A DNA stretch of 64,000 bases from a virus. Its lineage: Duplodnaviria > Caudoviricetes. Below are positions 4,108 through 56,787 of the stretch, one piece after another. The first letter of the stretch is position 1. Each line of letters begins with the position of its first letter. The notes beneath the pieces were generated by a model. That model did not search any database and was not told the DNA's origin. It saw only the letters and a list, made by a program, of their open reading frames with translations. Where the stretch lies: IMG/VR virus record IMGVR_UViG_3300011435_000017, positions 3,924 to 67,923 of that record. The stretch is one strand, 5' to 3'. The position numbers were made by a program, and so were the translations under genes.

Positions 4108-5232
4108 ATGAAACTCACTCTCAACCACAAGCAGATCGCCGAACTCATCAAGGCTGTCGGCAGCGACCGAACGGTGCTCGTGCAGGGCGAAGCCGGCACG
4201 GGCAAGACCACGCTGCTGTACGCGTTGGCGAAGGACCCGCACTTCGCCAGCTACCACGTTGTCGCTCCGATCGACTGCACGCAGTTGTCGGACGGCTCGA
4301 TCTGGGTGCCGGACATCGACCGTGAGGCCGGCGTCTCGCGCGAGCTGCCGAACGAGCGCTTCGGCATCAGCCGTGGCAACCACCACGGCATCGAGGGCGC
4401 GCAGCCGATCCTGCTGTGCTTCGACGAGATTGCGAAGGCGCGTCAGTACATCAAGGACGCGATTGCGCCGCTGCTGTACGAGCACCGCAGCGGCGACTAC
4501 CGCATGCCCAAGGGCAGCGTGGTGTTCGCTTGCACGAACCTCGGCGCGGAAGGGCTGGGCGACACGATGCAGGGCCACCTGCGCGACCGCATCATCGACG
4601 TGACGCTGCGCAAGCCGACCGCCGAGGAGTGGACGGAGAACTTCGCGATGCACCACGACCTGCACCCGGCGATCCTTGCCTGCGTGCAGGAGTACCCGCA
4701 GGTGTTCGAGTCGTTCACCGACTACGAGCCGGACGGTCCGAAGGCGGGGCGCGATCTGGCGCGCGACAACCCGTACATCTTCAACCCGAGGGCGACCCAA
4801 GACAAATGGGCAACGCCGCGTTCGCTGCACGCGGCGAGCGACATCCTGCACAAGGGCGGCGCGCTGGACAACGACACGATCACGGCCGCGCTCAACGGCA
4901 CCATCGGCCGCGCATACACCGCGCTGCTGATGGCGTACGTGCGCTTCGGCCAGTCGCTGCCGGCGTTCAGCATGGTCGTCTCCGATCCGAAGGGGACGGC
5001 GGTGCCGGTCAACCCCGGCGCGAAGGTGATGCTGGCCTTCCGCCTGATCCAGCAGGTGAAGGAGCGGCAGGAGGCGGAAGCGGTCAGCCAGTACATGGCG
5101 CGCTTCCCCAACGAGATGAAACTCCTCTTCGCTTCCAACGTGTCCCACAACACCAAGAAGATGGGACTCTTCTCACGGTCGGCGACGTTCACCACGGAGC
5201 TGGCCAAGAGCTTGAAGGTGCTCAATGCCTGA
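4108..5232 (+). CDS. AAA+ ATPase (MoxR/dynein-related AAA_5-like)
   Basis: Walker A GEAGTGKT, Walker B LLCFDE, sensor ACTN, and a PRS motif in the helical lid. Confidence 0.9.
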   Translation: MKLTLNHKQIAELIKAVGSDRTVLVQGEAGTGKTTLLYALAKDPHFASYHVVAPIDCTQLSDGSIWVPDIDREAGVSRELPNERFGISRGNHHGIEGAQPILLCFDEIAKARQYIKDAIAPLLYEHRSGDYRMPKGSVVFACTNLGAEGLGDTMQGHLRDRIIDVTLRKPTAEEWTENFAMHHDLHPAILACVQEYPQVFESFTDYEPDGPKAGRDLARDNPYIFNPRATQDKWATPRSLHAASDILHKGGALDNDTITAALNGTIGRAYTALLMAYVRFGQSLPAFSMVVSDPKGTAVPVNPGAKVMLAFRLIQQVKERQEAEAVSQYMARFPNEMKLLFASNVSHNTKKMGLFSRSATFTTELAKSLKVLNA

Positions 5233-7598: not shown

Positions 7599-8486
7599 AT
7601 GAACAACCACTTGAATCTAAATTCCTGCGGCATCCTCGTGACCCTCGCCATCTCCCAGTGGACCGCGCGCAAGCTCGACCGAGGCGTGTCCGACGAGGTG
7701 GAGGCACAGAAGGGCGCCAAGTCCAAGGGCGCCGCTCGTGTCAACAAGAACCTCCTTGCCGGACGCCCGGAGCTGGAAGAGATCGCGCAGATCGCGACGA
7801 AGGCTCGCAACTACGTGTACGACAACACCTTCCCGTGGACCGACAGCGGACAGCGCCTGCTGCCCACGCTCAAGCTCATGGAGTTCGACAAGACCGTGCG
7901 CGGCTACATGGCCGAGTTCAACGCCAAGGTGGATGGCTTCATCAGCATCTACCCGTCGTTGATCACGGCGCAGGCGATGGCGCTGGGCGAGATGTTCAAG
8001 CGCGACGACTTCCCGTCGGCCTCCGAGATCGCCGGCAAGTTCTCGATCGGCATGGACATCGAGCCCGTGCCGGCCGCGGGCGACTTCCGGGTGGACGTGG
8101 GCAACGAGGCGCTGGAGGAGCTGCAGAAGAGCCTGTCGAACACCAATGCCAAGCGCGAGGCGGCGATGCTGGCTGACATCAGCAAGCGCTTCGGCGAGCA
8201 TCTGGCGCGCATGTCCGACCGGCTGGTGTCCGAGACGGACGCCAAGACCGGCGACCCCAAGCAGAAGCGCTTCCATGACACGCTCGTGTCGAGCGCCTTC
8301 GAGCTGTGCTCGCTGGTCAAGTCTCTGCCGGCGTTGGCCGGACACGACATCGATCGGCTGGCCACGGCACTGGAGAAGGCGCTGGACGGCACCACGGCGC
8401 AGGTGCTGCGCGACGACCACGGCAAGCGGGAGGACGTGCGCAAGGCGGTGAACAAGCTGCGCGACCAGTTCGACTTGTCGGCCTGA
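7599..8486 (+). CDS. DUF3150-like protein
   Basis: N-terminal L-x-ISQWTARKLD and a 295-aa helical composition match the family that accompanies AAA/VWA pairs (recognised by eye). Confidence 0.6.
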   Translation: MNNHLNLNSCGILVTLAISQWTARKLDRGVSDEVEAQKGAKSKGAARVNKNLLAGRPELEEIAQIATKARNYVYDNTFPWTDSGQRLLPTLKLMEFDKTVRGYMAEFNAKVDGFISIYPSLITAQAMALGEMFKRDDFPSASEIAGKFSIGMDIEPVPAAGDFRVDVGNEALEELQKSLSNTNAKREAAMLADISKRFGEHLARMSDRLVSETDAKTGDPKQKRFHDTLVSSAFELCSLVKSLPALAGHDIDRLATALEKALDGTTAQVLRDDHGKREDVRKAVNKLRDQFDLSA

Positions 8487-8501
8487 CCGGGGAGGTGCAC
8501 C

Positions 8502-8729
8502 ATGCAGAAGTGGCACCGAGAGCTGGTGCACCGCCTCCGGGCGGTTGGCATCAGCGTCCCCGAGGTGAAGCAGGGAGCCAAGTCCACCCGGATACGTTGT
8601 ACCAAGGGGGCCTATGAATTTCTGTACTTTGCCTCCACGAGTGCCTCAGACTACCGGGCAATGGAGAACGCCGTGAAGGAAATCACCCGCAGCTTGCGGC
8701 AGAAGGAGCAGCATGCAGAGAACGCTTGA
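8502..8729 (+). CDS. HicA-like (dsRBD-fold) small protein
   Basis: Helix-beta-beta-beta-helix layout ending in ASTSASDYRAMENAVKEITR, similar to the S-T-P-S-D-x-R-x-x-x-N motif of phage HicA-like proteins. Confidence 0.5.
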   Translation: MQKWHRELVHRLRAVGISVPEVKQGAKSTRIRCTKGAYEFLYFASTSASDYRAMENAVKEITRSLRQKEQHAENA

Positions 8730-9102
8730 AATCCCGGTCAAGGAGCAGATCAGGAACGCACTCAACGCCCGGGCCGTGTACTTCACCATGCCCCCCGCCA
8801 ACGGCTACGGCCGAGCGGGGGGCTTCGATTTCACCTGCTGTGTCTCGGGCCAGTTCCTTGGCATCGAGGCGAAGCGCGACGACAAGGAGCAACCGACCAC
8901 GCTTCAGCACGACAACGCGGACAAGGCTCGCCAATCGGGCGGGATTGTCCTACTGATTCACAAGGGTAATGTTGAACTCGTGGCGCGCACGGTAGATGCC
9001 ATGCGGCAGCGCAACATCCGGGTGCCGAGCTACTGGCCGGCACGACGGATGCTTGTGGAGGACGACGTTCCCCAACCACGGCTGCGAAGGAAGCAACCAT
9101 GA
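8713..9102 (+). CDS. VRR-NUC / PD-(D/E)XK nuclease (Holliday junction resolvase-like)
   Basis: GRAGGFDF...FLGIEAK...PTTLQ. Confidence 0.85.
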   Translation: MQRTLEIPVKEQIRNALNARAVYFTMPPANGYGRAGGFDFTCCVSGQFLGIEAKRDDKEQPTTLQHDNADKARQSGGIVLLIHKGNVELVARTVDAMRQRNIRVPSYWPARRMLVEDDVPQPRLRRKQP

Positions 9103-9407
9103 GCGAAGAGATGAACGAACAGGAGCGCGCGGAGTTCGACGACTTCCACGAGCGCACGAAGCACTTCACCGACACGCAGCGGTACGCGCTGCGCAACTTC
9201 GTGAGCATCGCCATCGGCATCGTTGACTCGCCCGACAAGCCCGCCGTGCTGCTGCGCGCAGTCGAGGGCGACGACGGCATGCGGCGCGTGATGGTGCACT
9301 GCCTGACGCCGGACCACGACGAGGCGTCGGTGATGCTGCAGTACTACATGGAGGCACGCGCTTCGGTCATCAGCGCTGCGATGCAGAGCAACGAACAGAG
9401 GCATTGA
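9099..9407 (+). CDS. Hypothetical protein, 102 aa
   Basis: ATGA overlap with GGAAG upstream. Confidence 0.7.
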   Translation: MSEEMNEQERAEFDDFHERTKHFTDTQRYALRNFVSIAIGIVDSPDKPAVLLRAVEGDDGMRRVMVHCLTPDHDEASVMLQYYMEARASVISAAMQSNEQRH

Positions 9408-9420
9408 TCACTGAGGTCTA

Positions 9421-9447
9421 GTCCGAGCACCTCCAGAAAGCTCGGAC
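9421..9447 (+). promoter_or_regulatory. Inverted repeat upstream of the PEP-CTERM block
   Basis: GTCCGAGC-11nt-GCTCGGAC followed by ATTCTT and RBS AGGAG. Confidence 0.5.
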
Positions 9448-9464
9448 ATTCTTAGGAGTATGAG

Positions 9465-10070
9465 ATGAAGAAACTTTTCCTTGCGGCAGCAGCAGCGCTG
9501 GCGTTCTTCGCCGGACCTGCGAGCGCGGTCGTCGTCTGTGACGGCTGCGTCTACATCCCGGGCGAGCCGGCGACGTATCTCGGGGAGCACGACCCGAACA
9601 CGTTCGACAACAGCACGTTCGGCAACTCGACGACCGGGCAGAACGGGAACTTCAGCAATACGTGGGTCTTCGATGTCAACCCGACGGGCAACGCCACGCT
9701 CGACGTGATCTTCCTGCCGATCCAGAGCATCAGCAACTTCGCCGTCAACCTGTTCAGCGTGGACAGTGCGACGTGCGGCGCTGCCGGTGGCTCTTGCAGT
9801 GCGCTGGACTTGGGCGGGCTGCTGGCAACCAGCAACACGGTGCCCAACTACGCCTCGGTGCTGGACTTCACCTCGCTGCTGGCCGGGACCTACGCCTTCA
9901 CCGTGAGCGGCACGATCAGCGGCCTGTCCGCTGGTCAGCCCGCGTCCTACGTCGGCAACGTGCAGGTCGCTGCGATCCCCGAGCCGGAGACGTACGCGTT
10001 GTTCGGCATGGGCCTCGCCGCGGTCGCGTTCTTGAGCCGTCGTAAGAAGAAGGGGGGTGTGGCCGCTTAA
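9465..10070 (+). CDS. PEP-CTERM sorting-domain protein 1 (exosortase substrate)
   Basis: Signal peptide MKKLFLAAAAALAFFAGPASA; S/T/N/G-rich body; C-terminal IPEPETYALFGMGLAAVAFLSRRKKK (PEP motif, TM helix, basic tail). Confidence 0.93.
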   Translation: MKKLFLAAAAALAFFAGPASAVVVCDGCVYIPGEPATYLGEHDPNTFDNSTFGNSTTGQNGNFSNTWVFDVNPTGNATLDVIFLPIQSISNFAVNLFSVDSATCGAAGGSCSALDLGGLLATSNTVPNYASVLDFTSLLAGTYAFTVSGTISGLSAGQPASYVGNVQVAAIPEPETYALFGMGLAAVAFLSRRKKKGGVAA

Positions 10071-10088
10071 GCCTTGACCTCGCTCTGC

Positions 10089-10114
10089 ACCGCCGCCGAG
10101 GGCGGCGGTTTTCT
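10089..10114 (+). terminator. Rho-independent terminator after PEP-CTERM gene 1
   Basis: ACCGCCGCC-GAG-GGCGGCGGT followed by TTTCT. Confidence 0.75.
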
Positions 10115-10136
10115 ACCTCATACAGGAATCAACGTC

Positions 10137-10802
10137 ATGAAGAAATTCTTCCTCGCGATCGCCACGGCGCTCGCACTCATCCATGTACCCGCGCAAGCGG
10201 TGGACATCGGCTTCACCAACGAGTTCAGCGGTGGCACCGACTGCGCCATTCCCGCCACGGGTTGCTCGATCCTCACGGCGACTGCCATCGCTGGCGGGGT
10301 CCACTTCGAGTTCCAAGGCACGATGGTCGCAGGCGAGTTCGTCAGCGCGCTGTACGGGAACTTCAACGGTGGCGTGGCGCCGACGGTGGCGAACGTGGCT
10401 GGCAACACGGAGACGTTCATCGGCTTCGAGTTCGGCAGCAACGCGTTCAAGGCTGACGGCGACGGCTTCTTCGACTGGAAGCTGACGCTTGACAACGCGC
10501 CGCCGGGCAACCGCTTCAACGGCACGGACATGCTGTCGTGGGACTTCCTCGGCCTGCCCCTGTCGTTCTACAACAGCCTGAGCGTCAACGGTCCTGTTGG
10601 CAAGAACGGCTTCCTCTTCGCGACCCACGCGCAGGGGCTGGCTGATGGCGGCAGCGGCTGGTTCAACGGCGCAGTGCCCCCGGGCGGCACGCCGTTCGAC
10701 GTGACGCCGGTTCCCGAGCCGGAGACGTACGCGCTGTTCATGGCCGGCCTCGCGGCCGTGGCCTACATGCAGCGTCGTCGCAAGAAGCAAGAGCAAGCCT
10801 AA
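10137..10802 (+). CDS. PEP-CTERM sorting-domain protein 2 (exosortase substrate)
   Basis: ATG at 10137 after AGGAA; signal peptide MKKFFLAIATALALIHVPAQA; C-terminal VPEPETYALFMAGLAAVAYMQRRRKK. Confidence 0.93.
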   Translation: MKKFFLAIATALALIHVPAQAVDIGFTNEFSGGTDCAIPATGCSILTATAIAGGVHFEFQGTMVAGEFVSALYGNFNGGVAPTVANVAGNTETFIGFEFGSNAFKADGDGFFDWKLTLDNAPPGNRFNGTDMLSWDFLGLPLSFYNSLSVNGPVGKNGFLFATHAQGLADGGSGWFNGAVPPGGTPFDVTPVPEPETYALFMAGLAAVAYMQRRRKKQEQA

Positions 10803-10812
10803 GACTTGCCCC

Positions 10813-10842
10813 GCCCCCGGCGCAACGCCGGGGGCTTTTCTT
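10813..10842 (+). terminator. Rho-independent terminator after PEP-CTERM gene 2
   Basis: GCCCCCGGCG-CAA-CGCCGGGGGC followed by TTTTCTT. Confidence 0.85.
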
Positions 10843-10851
10843 GGAGCACCA

Positions 10852-12855
10852 ATGCCTCGTCCTTTCGACCATGTGATGGTCATCGACTTCGAGTCTGCGT
10901 GGGGCCGCGCAGTCAACCTTGGCTTCTCATGCCAAACAATGGAAGAGTACCTCCGCGATCCGCGCTTCAAGGCGTGGGGCCTGTCGTGGTCATTCATCGA
11001 TCTCAAGACCAACAAGCACATGCCCGTGTGGGTGCGCCGGTCTGGGCTCAAGTCATTCTTCGCCAGCCATGACTGGACACGCATCGCAGTAGTCGCGCAG
11101 AACGCGGCGTTCGATGTGTCGATCATGTTCTGGCACTACGGTGTCCACCCCGCCTTCATCCTCGACACGCTGAGCATGGGCCGCGCCCTTCACGGCGTCG
11201 AGGCGGGCAACAGCCTCAAGACACTGGCCGACCGCTATGAGCTGCCGGCCAAGATGCAGGGGCTGGAGTCGAGCGAGAACATCCTCGACGAGCTGCCCTT
11301 CAAGGTGGAGCAGGAGCTTGCGGTGTACTGCAAGCACGACTCGTGGCTGTGCGCCGAGCTGCTGATCCGCATGCTGCCGCACTTCCCTGTCTCCGAGCTG
11401 CAGCTCATCGACATGACGGTGAAGATGTACACCAGACCCGTCCTCGAATTCGACACGCCGATGCTGGAGGTGGCGCTCAAGGACGACGAAGACGCGCTGG
11501 CCAAGGCGCTGGCGCTGGTGAAGCGTACCGAGTCCGAGCTGGCCAGCAACGACACGTTCGCCGACGTGCTGCGCCTGCTGGGTGTCGATCCGCCGATGAA
11601 GCCCTCGCCGTCGGGCAAGGGCAAGGCCGAGGGCCGGATGATCTACGCCTTCGCCAAGAACGACGCCTTGTTCCAGCAGATGCAGAACGGCGACAACGAA
11701 GACGTTGCCCTGCTCTGCGAGGCACGGCTACGGGTGAAGTCCACGCAAGCTCGCACGCGGGCGCAGCGCTTCATCGACATCGGCGGGCGTGGTCCGCTGC
11801 CGGTGCCGCTCAACTACTGGGGCGCCGGGCCCGGCCGCTGGCAGGCATCGAAGGGCAGCAACGTCAACCTGCAGAACATGAAGCGCGGCAGCGCGCTGCG
11901 CAAGTCGATCAAGGCGCCTCCCGGCTACGTGGTGGTCGTCGGCGACCTGATGCAGATCGAGCCGCGGGTGCTGGCCGAGCTGACCGACTACACGGACCTG
12001 CAGAGCATCTTCCGCTCCGGGCAGGATGCGTACGCGCAGTTCGGCGCCGGCATGTTCGGCGTGCCGGGCATGACCAAGGAAAGCCACCCTGTGCTGCGCC
12101 AGAGCGCCAAGAGCGCGCTGCTGGGGGCTGGGTACATGCTGGGCTGGCCGAGCTTCGCCGGGCAGCTTCTTGCCGGCTTCCTTGGCGCTCCACCGAAGCG
12201 CTACACGGTGGCCGACGCCAAGCTCATGGGGATCACGGCGCAGCAGGTGATGAAGTTCACTGCCGACAAGTGGTGCATGGAGCGCGCTGCGCTCGTGCCA
12301 CACGCGTGCTCGGACGACGAGCTGCTGATCCACTGCATCGTGGCCAAGGAGATCATCGACCGCTACCGCGCCACGGCGCAGCCTGTCGTGAAGTTCTGGG
12401 GCTTCCTCAAGCAGATGCTGGAGGAGTGCCTGCACGGTGGTGCGACGCACACCTACAAGTGCCTGACCTTCGAGAAGGGCGCGATCCTCATGCCCAACGG
12501 CATGCGCATCCTGTACCCCGAGCTGACGAAGGGGCGCGACGAGCGCGGCCGCACTGCGTACATGTACCGCAAGGGAAAGAAGATCGAATACATCCACCCC
12601 GGCACGTTGTGCAACAACGTGACACAAGGGCTCGCACGCATCGTGATGAGTGATGGAATGCTTCGCGTCGCGAAGCGGCTGCCCGTGGTCCTCACGGTGC
12701 ACGACGAGCTGGCGGCGCTTGCTCGCCAGCAAGACTCTGCTAAGGCGAAGGTCTGGGTTCGCCAGCAGATGATCGTGGACCCGGTGTACCTGCCGGGCAT
12801 CCCGTTAGACGCCGATGTCGGCGCACACCAACGCTACGGAGAAGCAAAACAATGA
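10852..12855 (+). CDS. polA: Family A DNA polymerase with 3'-5' exonuclease domain
   Basis: ExoI VIDFES, ExoII QNAAFD, ExoIII YCKHD; motif A DLMQIEPR, motif B RQSAKSALLGAGY, motif C VHDE. Confidence 0.96.
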   Translation: MPRPFDHVMVIDFESAWGRAVNLGFSCQTMEEYLRDPRFKAWGLSWSFIDLKTNKHMPVWVRRSGLKSFFASHDWTRIAVVAQNAAFDVSIMFWHYGVHPAFILDTLSMGRALHGVEAGNSLKTLADRYELPAKMQGLESSENILDELPFKVEQELAVYCKHDSWLCAELLIRMLPHFPVSELQLIDMTVKMYTRPVLEFDTPMLEVALKDDEDALAKALALVKRTESELASNDTFADVLRLLGVDPPMKPSPSGKGKAEGRMIYAFAKNDALFQQMQNGDNEDVALLCEARLRVKSTQARTRAQRFIDIGGRGPLPVPLNYWGAGPGRWQASKGSNVNLQNMKRGSALRKSIKAPPGYVVVVGDLMQIEPRVLAELTDYTDLQSIFRSGQDAYAQFGAGMFGVPGMTKESHPVLRQSAKSALLGAGYMLGWPSFAGQLLAGFLGAPPKRYTVADAKLMGITAQQVMKFTADKWCMERAALVPHACSDDELLIHCIVAKEIIDRYRATAQPVVKFWGFLKQMLEECLHGGATHTYKCLTFEKGAILMPNGMRILYPELTKGRDERGRTAYMYRKGKKIEYIHPGTLCNNVTQGLARIVMSDGMLRVAKRLPVVLTVHDELAALARQQDSAKAKVWVRQQMIVDPVYLPGIPLDADVGAHQRYGEAKQ

Positions 12856-13166
12856 CGCATCCAATCCCGAGTTCGTTCCGCTTGCGTCGCCGCAAGTGGC
12901 TCGTCCGCAAGCTGGTCAGCAGCATGAGCGGCACACACGCGGGCCTGTGCGTGCCACCGCCGCCCAAGGAAATCCGCATCTACCAGATCGCCCGCAACAA
13001 GGCGCGCACGCCGCACCAGCAGCAGAAGACGTTCTGGCACGAGGGCACCCACGCCATCCTGATGACGATGGGCCACAAGCTCGCGCACAACGAGCCGTTC
13101 GTCACGCAGTTCTCTCTGCTGCTGGAGGAGCTGATCCGCACCTCGCGATTCGAGGAGAAGGCATGA
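12852..13166 (+). CDS. Small HExxH zincin-like protein
   Basis: TFWHEGTHAIL followed by NEPFV; ATGA-coupled to polA. Confidence 0.65.
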   Translation: MTHPIPSSFRLRRRKWLVRKLVSSMSGTHAGLCVPPPPKEIRIYQIARNKARTPHQQQKTFWHEGTHAILMTMGHKLAHNEPFVTQFSLLLEELIRTSRFEEKA

Positions 13167-13609
13167 GTGTCATTGCATGGGACGGCAGCACGCTCGCTGC
13201 CGACAAGCGCATCGTCAACGGCGGGATCGCCAAGACGTGCACGAAGATATTCCGCCACGAGAAGGAGCTGCTCGGCATCACGGGCGACTGGGACATCGGC
13301 GCCGAGCTGCGGGAGTGGTACAAGGCCGGCGCCGTGCCGGCCGACTTCCCCGACGAGGCGCGCAAGGATGACGGCAAGGCGGGGCTCAGCGTGTTCGACG
13401 GCAAGACCGTTCGCGTCTACAGCGCCGGGCCCTTCCCCTTGATCGTCGAGGACAAGTTCTTCGCAGCCGGCAGCGGCCGCGACTTCGCGTACGCGGCCAT
13501 GCACCTCGGCCGTGGCGCTGTCGAAGCCGTGCGCATCGCCTGCGTGTTCCAGACCGACTGCGGCAGCGGGTACGACGTGATGACGCTGCATGGAGGTGAG
13601 CCGACATGA
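13163..13609 (+). CDS. Ntn-hydrolase (HslV/proteasome beta-like) protein
   Basis: MSVIAWDG-x-LAADKR...KIFR...GITGD...AAGSGRDFAYAAM, the proteasome-fold pattern. Confidence 0.75.
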   Translation: MSVIAWDGSTLAADKRIVNGGIAKTCTKIFRHEKELLGITGDWDIGAELREWYKAGAVPADFPDEARKDDGKAGLSVFDGKTVRVYSAGPFPLIVEDKFFAAGSGRDFAYAAMHLGRGAVEAVRIACVFQTDCGSGYDVMTLHGGEPT

Positions 13610-55215: not shown

Positions 55216-56787
55216 TCAGTAGTATGCGCGACGTGGCCGGCGGCGGGCGATTTCGTCCTCCTCCGGGTCTGTCTGCACGTCGGTCTTCAGCGACAGGAAG
55301 CCGCCGCGCCGGAAGCGATCGAGGGCCAGTTGAACGCAGTCCACAAAGTCATCGTGCTCGCCGTTGGGGTAGTCCGCGCACTCATCGACGACCTCGTATG
55401 CCCAGCGCCGGTCGGGGTGCCACACGACCCCGCCCTGCAGGACTGGAGCTACGGCGTTGACCCGCGCTCTCTTGTCCTTGGAGACGCCAACCTTGCCACG
55501 GCTTGGGGATACCTCGGCTATTAGCAGCCCGGATTGACGGAGTTCTTGGATCAAGGGGGCACCCGCGGCCTTCTTCTCGATGATCACGTCGTCGGGCTCC
55601 CAGTCCTTGTACAACTGGAACGCCTTCTCCTTGAGCTGCGGGAACTCCCAGCGGCCGCGCAACGCGTTCAACATGATGATGTGGTGCTTCTCGTCGTCCT
55701 CGTCGTACCACACGCCCCATGTGATGCACGCCGAGTAGTCATTGTGGCTCTTCGTGTCGTGCGCGGTGTCCCAGACTTGCAGGATGTACTCGCAGGTCGG
55801 TGGCGTGTCCTTCGGCCAAACACGCCACCATTCCCGCTTCAGGAGCTGGCCCGCGGCCGATGAGGGCTCCTGCTGGTACTGCGCGGCCCAGTACTGGGGC
55901 AGCATGCCGGCCTGCTTCGCTTCGAGCTGCTCCAGCGGCCACTGCTCGGGCCACAGCGACTTGCCGCTGGGCATGATCGCCGGGAAGCGCACCTCGTTCC
56001 AAGGGATCGAGGAGGGGTTCTCCAAGGCCCATGCAAGCGCTCGGCCGATCGGGTCCTTCTTCCCCCACCGCGTGCCGATCTGGATGATCCTGCCGCCCGG
56101 CATGAGGCGCTGGAGCGGGCCCACCTGCATGTAGGTCCACGCCGTCTCGAAGGCAACGTCGGGGTTGGCCAGCACCGCCTGCTCGGATACGAGGTCATCG
56201 GCGAGGAGCAGGTGCGCGCCGTAGCCGGCAACCGAGCCACCGACGCCAACCGCGAGGTACTTGCCGCCGACAGTGGTCGTCCAGTCATCGGCTGCCGACT
56301 TGTCCTTCGAGACGATCGTTCCGGGGAAGATCGCTTGGTAGTCCGGCGTCGCCAGCATGTTGCGAACGAGGCGCCCGAACGACGAGGAGAGGTCCGCGGT
56401 GTGCGTGACCATGATGATGTGGTGCTCGGGGTGGTGCCCGAGATACCACGCCACGAACAGGTAGGCGATCGTGACGGATTTGCCGAATCGAGGCGGGAGG
56501 GACACCGTGAGGCGCAGCTCCAGACCGATGCAGACGTTGTGCAGCAGCGGCTCAAGGAACCGGTGATGCGGTCCCTCCTTGAAGCCCGGGTACATGCGGG
56601 CGCAGAAGTGGAGAAAAGACACCCTGCACCGTTCGAGCATCAAGCTCTCTTCGAGTGCAGTTAAATCGGCCATGAGCTGCTCGGCGTCCTTCCTCGGAAG
56701 GGTCGGCAGCGTCTCCTCGATGCGCTCGATCTCCTCTGGCGCCAGCGGCGACAAGGCTGCGGCGTCAGCGTACGGGAGGAGATTCAT
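55216..56787 (-). CDS. terL: Terminase large subunit
   Basis: Walker A-like PPRFGKS, GYGAHLLLADDL, IQIGTRW, QYQQEP, and RNase H-like nuclease motifs WDTA...NDYSA and HDDFVD. Confidence 0.95.
   Translation of the reverse strand: MNLLPYADAAALSPLAPEEIERIEETLPTLPRKDAEQLMADLTALEESLMLERCRVSFLHFCARMYPGFKEGPHHRFLEPLLHNVCIGLELRLTVSLPPRFGKSVTIAYLFVAWYLGHHPEHHIIMVTHTADLSSSFGRLVRNMLATPDYQAIFPGTIVSKDKSAADDWTTTVGGKYLAVGVGGSVAGYGAHLLLADDLVSEQAVLANPDVAFETAWTYMQVGPLQRLMPGGRIIQIGTRWGKKDPIGRALAWALENPSSIPWNEVRFPAIMPSGKSLWPEQWPLEQLEAKQAGMLPQYWAAQYQQEPSSAAGQLLKREWWRVWPKDTPPTCEYILQVWDTAHDTKSHNDYSACITWGVWYDEDDEKHHIIMLNALRGRWEFPQLKEKAFQLYKDWEPDDVIIEKKAAGAPLIQELRQSGLLIAEVSPSRGKVGVSKDKRARVNAVAPVLQGGVVWHPDRRWAYEVVDECADYPNGEHDDFVDCVQLALDRFRRGGFLSLKTDVQTDPEEDEIARRRPRRAYY

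Follow-up and report, generated by a model that had tools for sequence, protein, structure and literature searches.

Why would a tailed phage that encodes no exosortase carry two adjacent genes for PEP-CTERM proteins? The question is raised by a 64,000-nucleotide stretch of DNA (hereafter the window) comprising bases 3924-67923 of the 67,923-bp IMG/VR virus record IMGVR_UViG_3300011435_000017 (CheckV completeness 100%). Two open reading frames (ORFs), ORF1 (9465-10070, + strand) and ORF2 (10137-10802, + strand), form a cassette upstream of the DNA polymerase gene polA. Bacteria of soil, sediment, and sludge commonly possess the exosortase/PEP-CTERM system, which Zoogloea requires for floc formation; to our knowledge, the fate and binding partners of exosortase substrates are largely unknown. 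The answer that we regard as rather likely is that the two genes are mobile phage cargo, that a host exosortase delivers their products to the cell surface or matrix, and that receptor masking or exclusion of other phages is their most probable use.

Both ORFs are real genes on the + strand, and both scored above the cut-offs of the two PEP-CTERM hidden Markov models (HMMs) that the preliminary description of this DNA had proposed as a check. ORF1 encodes a predicted secreted protein of 201 amino acids and ORF2 one of 221 amino acids. Their scores were 26.9 and 29.2 bits, respectively, against PF07589 (cut-off 20.7) and 23.5 and 23.8 bits against TIGR02595 (cut-off 16), and the PEP-CTERM domains were located at nucleotides 9972-10055 and 10707-10790. 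ORF1 is in addition a member of the FxDxF family, with 77.4 bits against NF038126 over residues 41-194 (cut-off 50); ORF2 is not, since its 39.6 bits against the same model came from the tail only. Neither protein reached the cut-off of 35 bits for the PEPxxWA-CTERM model NF035944 (11.1 bits for ORF1 and 21.5 bits for ORF2). The range originally listed for ORF2, from a TTG at 10074, did not stand. The true start is almost certainly, from its sequence context, the ATG at 10137 (MKKFFLAIATALALIHVPAQA...), a codon preceded by a hairpin that resembles a terminator and by an AGGA ribosome site. A six-frame HMM search of the whole 67,923-bp record found exactly two PEP-CTERM domains (31.0 and 32.1 bits). 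G003 and G005, both complete genomes of relatives, likewise yielded two domains each, and 14 control genomes yielded none.

The proteins share the architecture of exosortase substrates from end to end. As had been described, each begins with a signal peptide, consisting of MKK, a hydrophobic core, and ASA or AQA at residue 21. The signal peptides (residues 1-21, nucleotides 9465-9527, in ORF1; nucleotides 10137-10199 in ORF2) were judged by eye and are conserved across both family alignments. Both tails read [IV]PEPETYAL, followed by a helix of ~17 residues and then RRKKK or RRRKK. This sorting signal is among the best conserved parts of both families: P172, E173, and P174 of ORF1 and V192-P195 of ORF2 are invariant or nearly so. 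Near-invariance of the PEP residues fits recognition of the motif rather than mere anchoring.

Between signal peptide and tail, each protein has one beta-sandwich domain in AlphaFold2 models built on the family alignments (pLDDT 84 for ORF1 and 87 for ORF2). The body of ORF1 carries four cysteines that are invariant across its family alignment (C25, C28, C104, and C111), which fits an extracytoplasmic protein, and that of ORF2 carries an AFKADGDGFFD loop that is likewise invariant across its family. The ORF1 fold resembles the ColG collagen-binding/PPC (pre-peptidase C-terminal) domain and also the C-terminal domain of the C. perfringens enterotoxin (Foldseek E 7e-7 and TMt 0.5-0.7); as modeled, it resembles a generic ligand-binding sandwich. 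The ORF2 model is a generic sandwich of the kind seen in carbohydrate-binding modules and adhesins, with no specific solved structural relative (Foldseek E of at least 6e-3; VIA Z of at most 7.4). Sequence-profile searches of the PDB gave no match for either family, and a protein atlas search returned solely other PEP-CTERM clusters of Pseudomonadota.

The absence of an exosortase gene, first reported for the window, extends to the whole 67.9-kb record, in which we found neither a PF09721 exosortase nor any ORF with four or more hydrophobic segments. PF09721 was also not found in five related phage records. All 33 database relatives of ORF1 (33/33) were metagenomic, and the longest of the contigs that carry them were phage-sized (~40, 65, and 68 kb). 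ORF1-family genes were present in 18 JGI metagenome contigs, with phage neighbors at every locus long enough to judge. A search of 185,579 species-representative genomes for sequences with both of the best-conserved body motifs turned up no relative of ORF1, to which bacterial FxDxF proteins show only 25-34% identity. As judged from these searches, the ORF1 subfamily is phage-restricted. Bacterial members of the ORF2 family, all of them at most 38% identical, come from Planctomycetota, Verrucomicrobiota, Acidobacteriota, and Desulfobacterota, plus a few Proteobacteria. In IMG/VR, the tail [VI]PEPETYAL occurred in 19 contigs and ORF2-family genes in 18, with ~20 viral contigs carrying the family.

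Could the cassette instead be host DNA mis-assembled onto a phage, or a recent, nonfunctional pick-up? PEP-CTERM genes are typically bacterial, and relatives were not found among cultured phages: tblastn of ORF1, ORF2, and the ORF2 tail against 50,697 cultured-phage records gave no match, and neither protein matched any PHROG. A chimeric assembly had also been named at the outset as an objection, and on the sequence evidence it fails. The junctions that join g9099 (9099-9407, a 102-amino-acid gene of no assigned function that directly precedes ORF1), ORF1, ORF2, and polA are kept in independent metagenome assemblies (IMG 3300009678 and 3300027573). Against the relative L001, the synonymous divergence (dS) is 0.30 for ORF1, 0.42 for ORF2, and 0.18-0.34 for the flanking genes. 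The ratio of nonsynonymous to synonymous divergence (dN/dS) is 0.39 for ORF1 and 0.21 for ORF2. Amino acid identities to L001 are 82% for ORF1, 84% for ORF2, and 94% for polA, and the cassette is, by such sequence comparison, evolving faster than the core genes. The G+C content at third codon positions is 0.87 in the cassette genes, equal to that of polA. A dS and third-position composition like those of the flanks, together with these dN/dS values, indicate that the cassette was inherited with the backbone and is under purifying selection. The lack of a close bacterial counterpart and the number of viral contigs with the family also speak against an artifact or passenger, which we consider highly improbable. 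To the extent that sequence data allow, the chimera or contamination reading is refuted. By all of these measures, ORF1 and ORF2 are long-standing phage genes, not host contamination.

Phages exchange these genes. Two unrelated backbones carry the pair, a 68-kb type (A, that of the window) and a 40-kb type (B, represented by G005, which is 99% complete). Between the two types, backbone proteins are <32% identical and cassette proteins are 60-78% identical. Gene order in the 40-kb type is polA, primase/helicase, SNF2 helicase, the PEP-CTERM pair, a terminator, and then convergent late genes. A survey for adjacency to polA, as had been suggested, thus bore out the association in the 68-kb type (g9099-cassette-polA) but not in the 40-kb type, in which the pair follows the SNF2 helicase gene, or in G003, in which it is placed between the exonuclease and SNF2 helicase genes. 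Backbone types A and B are intermixed on the ORF1 tree, which requires a minimum of four backbone changes. Forcing the four backbone-A sequences into one clade was rejected by the approximately unbiased (AU) test (log-likelihood difference 114.6, p-AU 1e-184), in which backbone groups were set by neighboring genes and which was run after the ORF1 tree had been viewed.

Sequence identity between individual loci agrees with this picture. L126:297-1040 (backbone A) and L003:4621-5364 (backbone B) are 96.4% identical at the DNA level across 744 nt, and L001 and L122 are 90% identical over ORF1 and 77% over ORF2. The near-identical stretch and the mismatch between ORFs indicate that exchange has been recent and mosaic. 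The left edge of the 744-nt stretch lies ~30 nt inside ORF1, in the region coding for the signal peptide, and may be a recombination boundary. The partner of ORF1 also varies. In the metagenome contig L133, whose polA is 90% identical to that of the window, ORF1 is followed by an unrelated PEP-CTERM protein of 239 amino acids (L133:394-1113) in place of ORF2. G003 (IMGVR_UViG_3300046461_000123), a complete genome with terminal repeats and a polA 73% identical to that of the window, has no cassette before polA; its pair consists of an ORF1-like gene and a gene for an unrelated 271-amino-acid PEP-CTERM protein (L004:8643-9458) with the tail VPEPGSLAL. Different partners in L133 and G003 indicate that the second cassette position is swappable, and G004 has a single cassette gene. 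We conclude from these comparisons that the two genes are a mobile phage cassette traded between unrelated phages.

PEP-CTERM genes unrelated to this cassette were also seen on other IMG/VR contigs, at classic moron sites. One lies ~1 kb from an integrase gene on a 39.5-kb contig (L018:440-3179), and another lies ~2.6 kb from a tail-fiber J-like gene in a prophage of an isolate genome (L010:129-6050).

The tail of the two proteins points to a particular bacterial pathway. We searched genomes for [VI]PEPETYAL as a degenerate DNA pattern, with the reversed pattern as a control. The motif was present in 37 of 401 genomes (36 of 400 without one unpublished genome, G215) of the order holding Nitrosomonas nitrosa, which we infer to be the Burkholderiales of GTDB, the former Betaproteobacteria. 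It reached 14 copies per genome, and the reversed control gave 0. It was found in none of 81 genomes of Planctomycetota, none of 61 of the class of Desertibaculum, and none of 17 of the order of a Chromatiaceae metagenome-assembled genome; the nominal Fisher p for the contrast is 5e-6, for genomes that are not independent of each other. Each of the five motif-richest genomes encodes an exosortase; each also has several FxDxF genes, which frequently stand in tandem. All five passed the XrtB model (313-381 bits; cut-off 275); XrtA is present too in two of them, and XrtB is the only exosortase in three. Among genomes of similar size, XrtB (TIGR03113 systems) was found in 27 of 36 motif-positive and 11 of 40 motif-negative genomes (nominal Fisher p 7e-5, the genomes being related). 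The preliminary description had assigned the proteins to EpsH/XrtA. Their type as PEP-CTERM proteins is upheld, but these results make XrtB more likely to be the matching exosortase than XrtA/EpsH.

In XrtB-bearing genomes, bacterial FxDxF genes occur in tandem arrays of two to four (G015:C1:2578321-2581006 and G370:C1:2859826-2861140), an arrangement that echoes the phage pair, and in G172 an FxDxF gene lies ~6 kb from xrtB.

Tails differ among related phages, which have PEPETYAL, PEPSEWAL, PEPGSLAL or PEPGSLLL, PEPSSLAF, and PEPATLAI on contigs of 41-68% GC. Tracking of different hosts would give such variety, and shared descent of body and tail would explain part of it. An ORF1-family gene that is 59% identical and has the tail VPEPATLAI was found on an 11-kb contig at 41% GC (L129, Ga0164309_10001559, 4325-4921). 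Its base composition indicates that the family reaches phages of very different hosts.

How might the cassette be expressed? Most proteobacterial PEP-CTERM genes are single-gene operons with >200 nt of upstream sequence that contains σ54 -24/-12 and PrsR (...TTTACA) sites (Haft 2006, PMC1569441). Neither ORF1 nor ORF2 shows this proteobacterial arrangement. The intergenic gaps are 57 nt before ORF1, 66 nt between ORF1 and ORF2, and 49 nt between ORF2 and polA. We found no TTTACA (PrsR) and no σ54-like site in 9201-10140, and no σ70-like promoter in 8400-11200. Co-orientation with the genes of the replication module and the absence of a σ54/PrsR region would fit expression during infection.

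Three hairpins on the + strand punctuate the region. The hairpin upstream of ORF1 (9421-9447), identified from sequence and predicted fold, has an 8-bp stem (GTCCGAGC/GCTCGGAC) and an 11-nt loop, and an AGGAG ribosome site (9453-9457) lies between it and ORF1. One compensatory change in L001 (U-A to C-G) preserves this stem. Candidate roles are terminator of the upstream genes, processing element, or promoter element. Between ORF1 and ORF2 is a terminator-like GC hairpin (CCGCCGCC-GAG-GGCGGCGG, then TTTTCT; 10090-10114), the stem of which is identical in L001. After ORF2, a strong intrinsic-terminator-like hairpin (10813-10842) combines 10 G-C pairs and a 3-nt loop with a following TTTTCTT and ends 10 nt ahead of the polA start (10852). 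L001 keeps its stem, with a degraded T-run.

These observations suggest the following sequence of events; passage through a host exosortase is an inference, though a well-supported one. The two genes would be transcribed together with the phage replication genes, free of host σ54/PrsR control, so that the surface or matrix of the infected cell would be changed during infection. The host Sec system would export the proteins, and the PEP-CTERM helix would hold them in the inner membrane. There, a host exosortase would recognize the PEP motif. To judge by the tail type, it would be an XrtB-type enzyme in a high-GC host of the Betaproteobacteria type. The exosortase would then release the proteins or hand them to the outer surface or exopolysaccharide layer. 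By analogy with Llp of phage T5, the likeliest use may be to mask the receptor or to exclude competing phages; the proteins might also keep progeny from sticking to infected cells or debris. Alteration of the floc matrix would be a close second. The rapid evolution of the genes and their trade among co-infecting phages would be in keeping with a conflict between phages or between phage and receptor.

Two other uses of the same proteins deserve consideration. The products might remain unprocessed in the inner membrane as anchored proteins whose periplasmic domains, for example, block DNA entry, as do exclusion proteins of other phages. The phage encodes no exosortase, and the topology predicted before cleavage (Sec signal, periplasmic domain, C-terminal helix, and cytoplasmic basic cluster) is what such an anchor would have. 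A plain anchor, however, has no need of the nearly invariant PEP motif. The tail type is, moreover, that of exosortase-bearing genomes, and the tails of related phages mirror bacterial tail classes (PEPETYAL, PEPSEWAL, and PEPGSLAL). We hold this reading to be unlikely, though a serious rival. Slightly more doubtful still is that the proteins act as decoy substrates, the bulk of their tails jamming the host exosortase so that maturation of host PEP-CTERM proteins fails, floc or slime loosens, and progeny escape. Constancy of the signal peptide and tail would be expected of decoys, as would a second slot that varies (ORF2-like, 239 amino acids in L133, and 271 amino acids in G003), and expression without host σ54 control could be high. 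Two genes seem unnecessary for jamming, however, and a pure decoy would need neither the four invariant cysteines of ORF1 nor the AFKADGDGFFD of ORF2, both kept across distant phages. The dN/dS values (0.39 and 0.21) indicate purifying selection on both bodies, and saturation of the sortase, one of the roles first suggested for the pair, is weakened by it. Conserved bodies argue for a function of the domains as such, probably in binding, and against a decoy that purely jams the enzyme.

Delivery of mobile cargo by the host exosortase has points against it as well. The structural matches are generic beta-sandwiches, with no ligand indicated. The link between tail motif and exosortase is correlative and comes from interrelated genomes, and nine motif-positive genomes had no XrtB match. 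The contigs in which ORF1 has relatives span 41-68% GC and encode other tail types, which suggests a broad host range for the family. Finally, transcription entering from the replication operon could be curtailed at the terminator-like hairpins that precede ORF1 and separate it from ORF2.

The setting of the cassette is that of an ordinary phage genome. By its gene content (large terminase [TerL], portal, head protein, primase/helicase, and polA), the record is a true and complete tailed-phage genome. A + strand module at ~600-22,200 encodes an ATPase, an HNH endonuclease, a small PD-(D/E)XK-like endonuclease, a family-A DNA polymerase, an HslV-like peptidase, a PD-(D/E)XK exonuclease, an SNF2 helicase, and a primase/helicase; the large terminase, portal, and head protein are encoded in a - strand module. 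ORF1 and ORF2 lie within the replication module, co-oriented with its genes on the + strand. They had been placed between a resolvase gene and polA. The polA side is correct, but the supposed resolvase is a phrog_93 endonuclease encoded two genes upstream (8713-9102). No integrase (PF00589) was found in this phage, in a search that covered G000, G003, and G005, and no tRNA genes were found in the window.

The host could not be named from the core genes. The polA product is at most 30% identical to those of cultured KPP25-like Pseudomonas phages and Rhizobium phages, and the large terminase (55216-56787) is ~40% identical to those of cultured phages; both are too distant for this purpose, and the phage has no close relative in culture. 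Relatives of the terminase belong to 57-65-kb phages of Synechococcus/Planktothrix (MinM2 and Pag-Yong1) and Pelagibacter (HTVC027P and HTVC023P). Downstream of the cassette, the ORF of the HslV-like peptidase (12815-13609) matches phrog_1040 at residues 113-262 and is extended at its N terminus by 110 residues, into the end of polA; its true start is probably an internal Met near 13170.

PEP-CTERM/exosortase systems are well known, as is phage cargo that travels on host sorting routes, whether as lipoproteins or as LPXTG proteins. Llp of T5 and Cor of phi80 and N15 are phage lipoproteins that travel to the envelope by a host sorting route and mask the receptor there. Receptor masking by Llp is proven, and its lipobox is read by Lgt, LspA, and Lol. 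The pair described here would resemble these proteins in that a phage gene expressed during infection has a secreted product with a host sorting tag, which the host would deliver to the envelope. It differs in its tag (PEP-CTERM/exosortase rather than lipobox), shows no relation in sequence or fold, and would mask receptors only by inference. SasX of Staphylococcus aureus is an LPXTG protein encoded on a prophage. It is similarly a surface protein carried by a phage, and its C-terminal sorting signal is recognized by a transpeptidase that the host, not the phage, encodes. The SasX system, however, involves LPXTG and sortase, a temperate phage, and lysogenic conversion, whereas here there is no integrase and the genes lie in a replication module.

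We found no description in the literature of PEP-CTERM proteins from tailed phages. The one virus-like case that we came upon is HOG10 of the Dehalococcoides mobile element/virus lineage IME1, a protein for which a PEP-CTERM domain is noted (bioRxiv 10.64898/2026.09.15.751708). IME1 differs in that it is integrative, shares traits with filamentous or budding viruses, and has a Chloroflexota host without an outer membrane. HOG10 is unrelated to the ORF1 and ORF2 families, and the passage that notes the domain does not discuss a link to an exosortase.

The closest likeness is to the bacterial substrates themselves. Bacterial PEP-CTERM proteins have the same signal peptide, small and diverse body, PEP motif, helix, and basic cluster (PMC1569441; TIGR02595, PF07589). 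FxDxF proteins (NF038126) of XrtB-bearing Betaproteobacteria are closest, as ORF1 passes their model, the bacterial genes are also found in tandem, and the tail is the same [VI]PEPETYAL. In contrast to the bacterial systems, the phage pair is carried by virulent-looking phages without an exosortase and is only 25-38% identical to bacterial members. It also lacks the σ54/PrsR region, with gaps of ~60 nt instead of >200 nt, and the ORF1 subfamily, unlike bacterial FxDxF proteins, is confined to phage contexts.

The pair would thus add a Gram-negative, environmental counterpart to the phage cargo that rides on host sorting, alongside lipoproteins of the T5 Llp type and prophage LPXTG proteins. 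Phage PEP-CTERM proteins may also be handy probes of the exosortase pathway, being small, single-domain, free of host σ54 control, under selection, and exchanged between phages; any effect on adsorption would tie this pathway to phage defense or competition. We put forward tentatively, as an attractive but speculative extension, that they are phage-specific exosortase hijackers, that is, binding modules that are traded among unrelated virulent phages of the same XrtB-bearing soil Betaproteobacteria and that, once brought to the surface by the host exosortase, mask the phages' receptor or exclude rivals. If so, the exosortase pathway would be a battleground of phage-phage competition, and PEP-CTERM proteins would gain their first defined molecular role.

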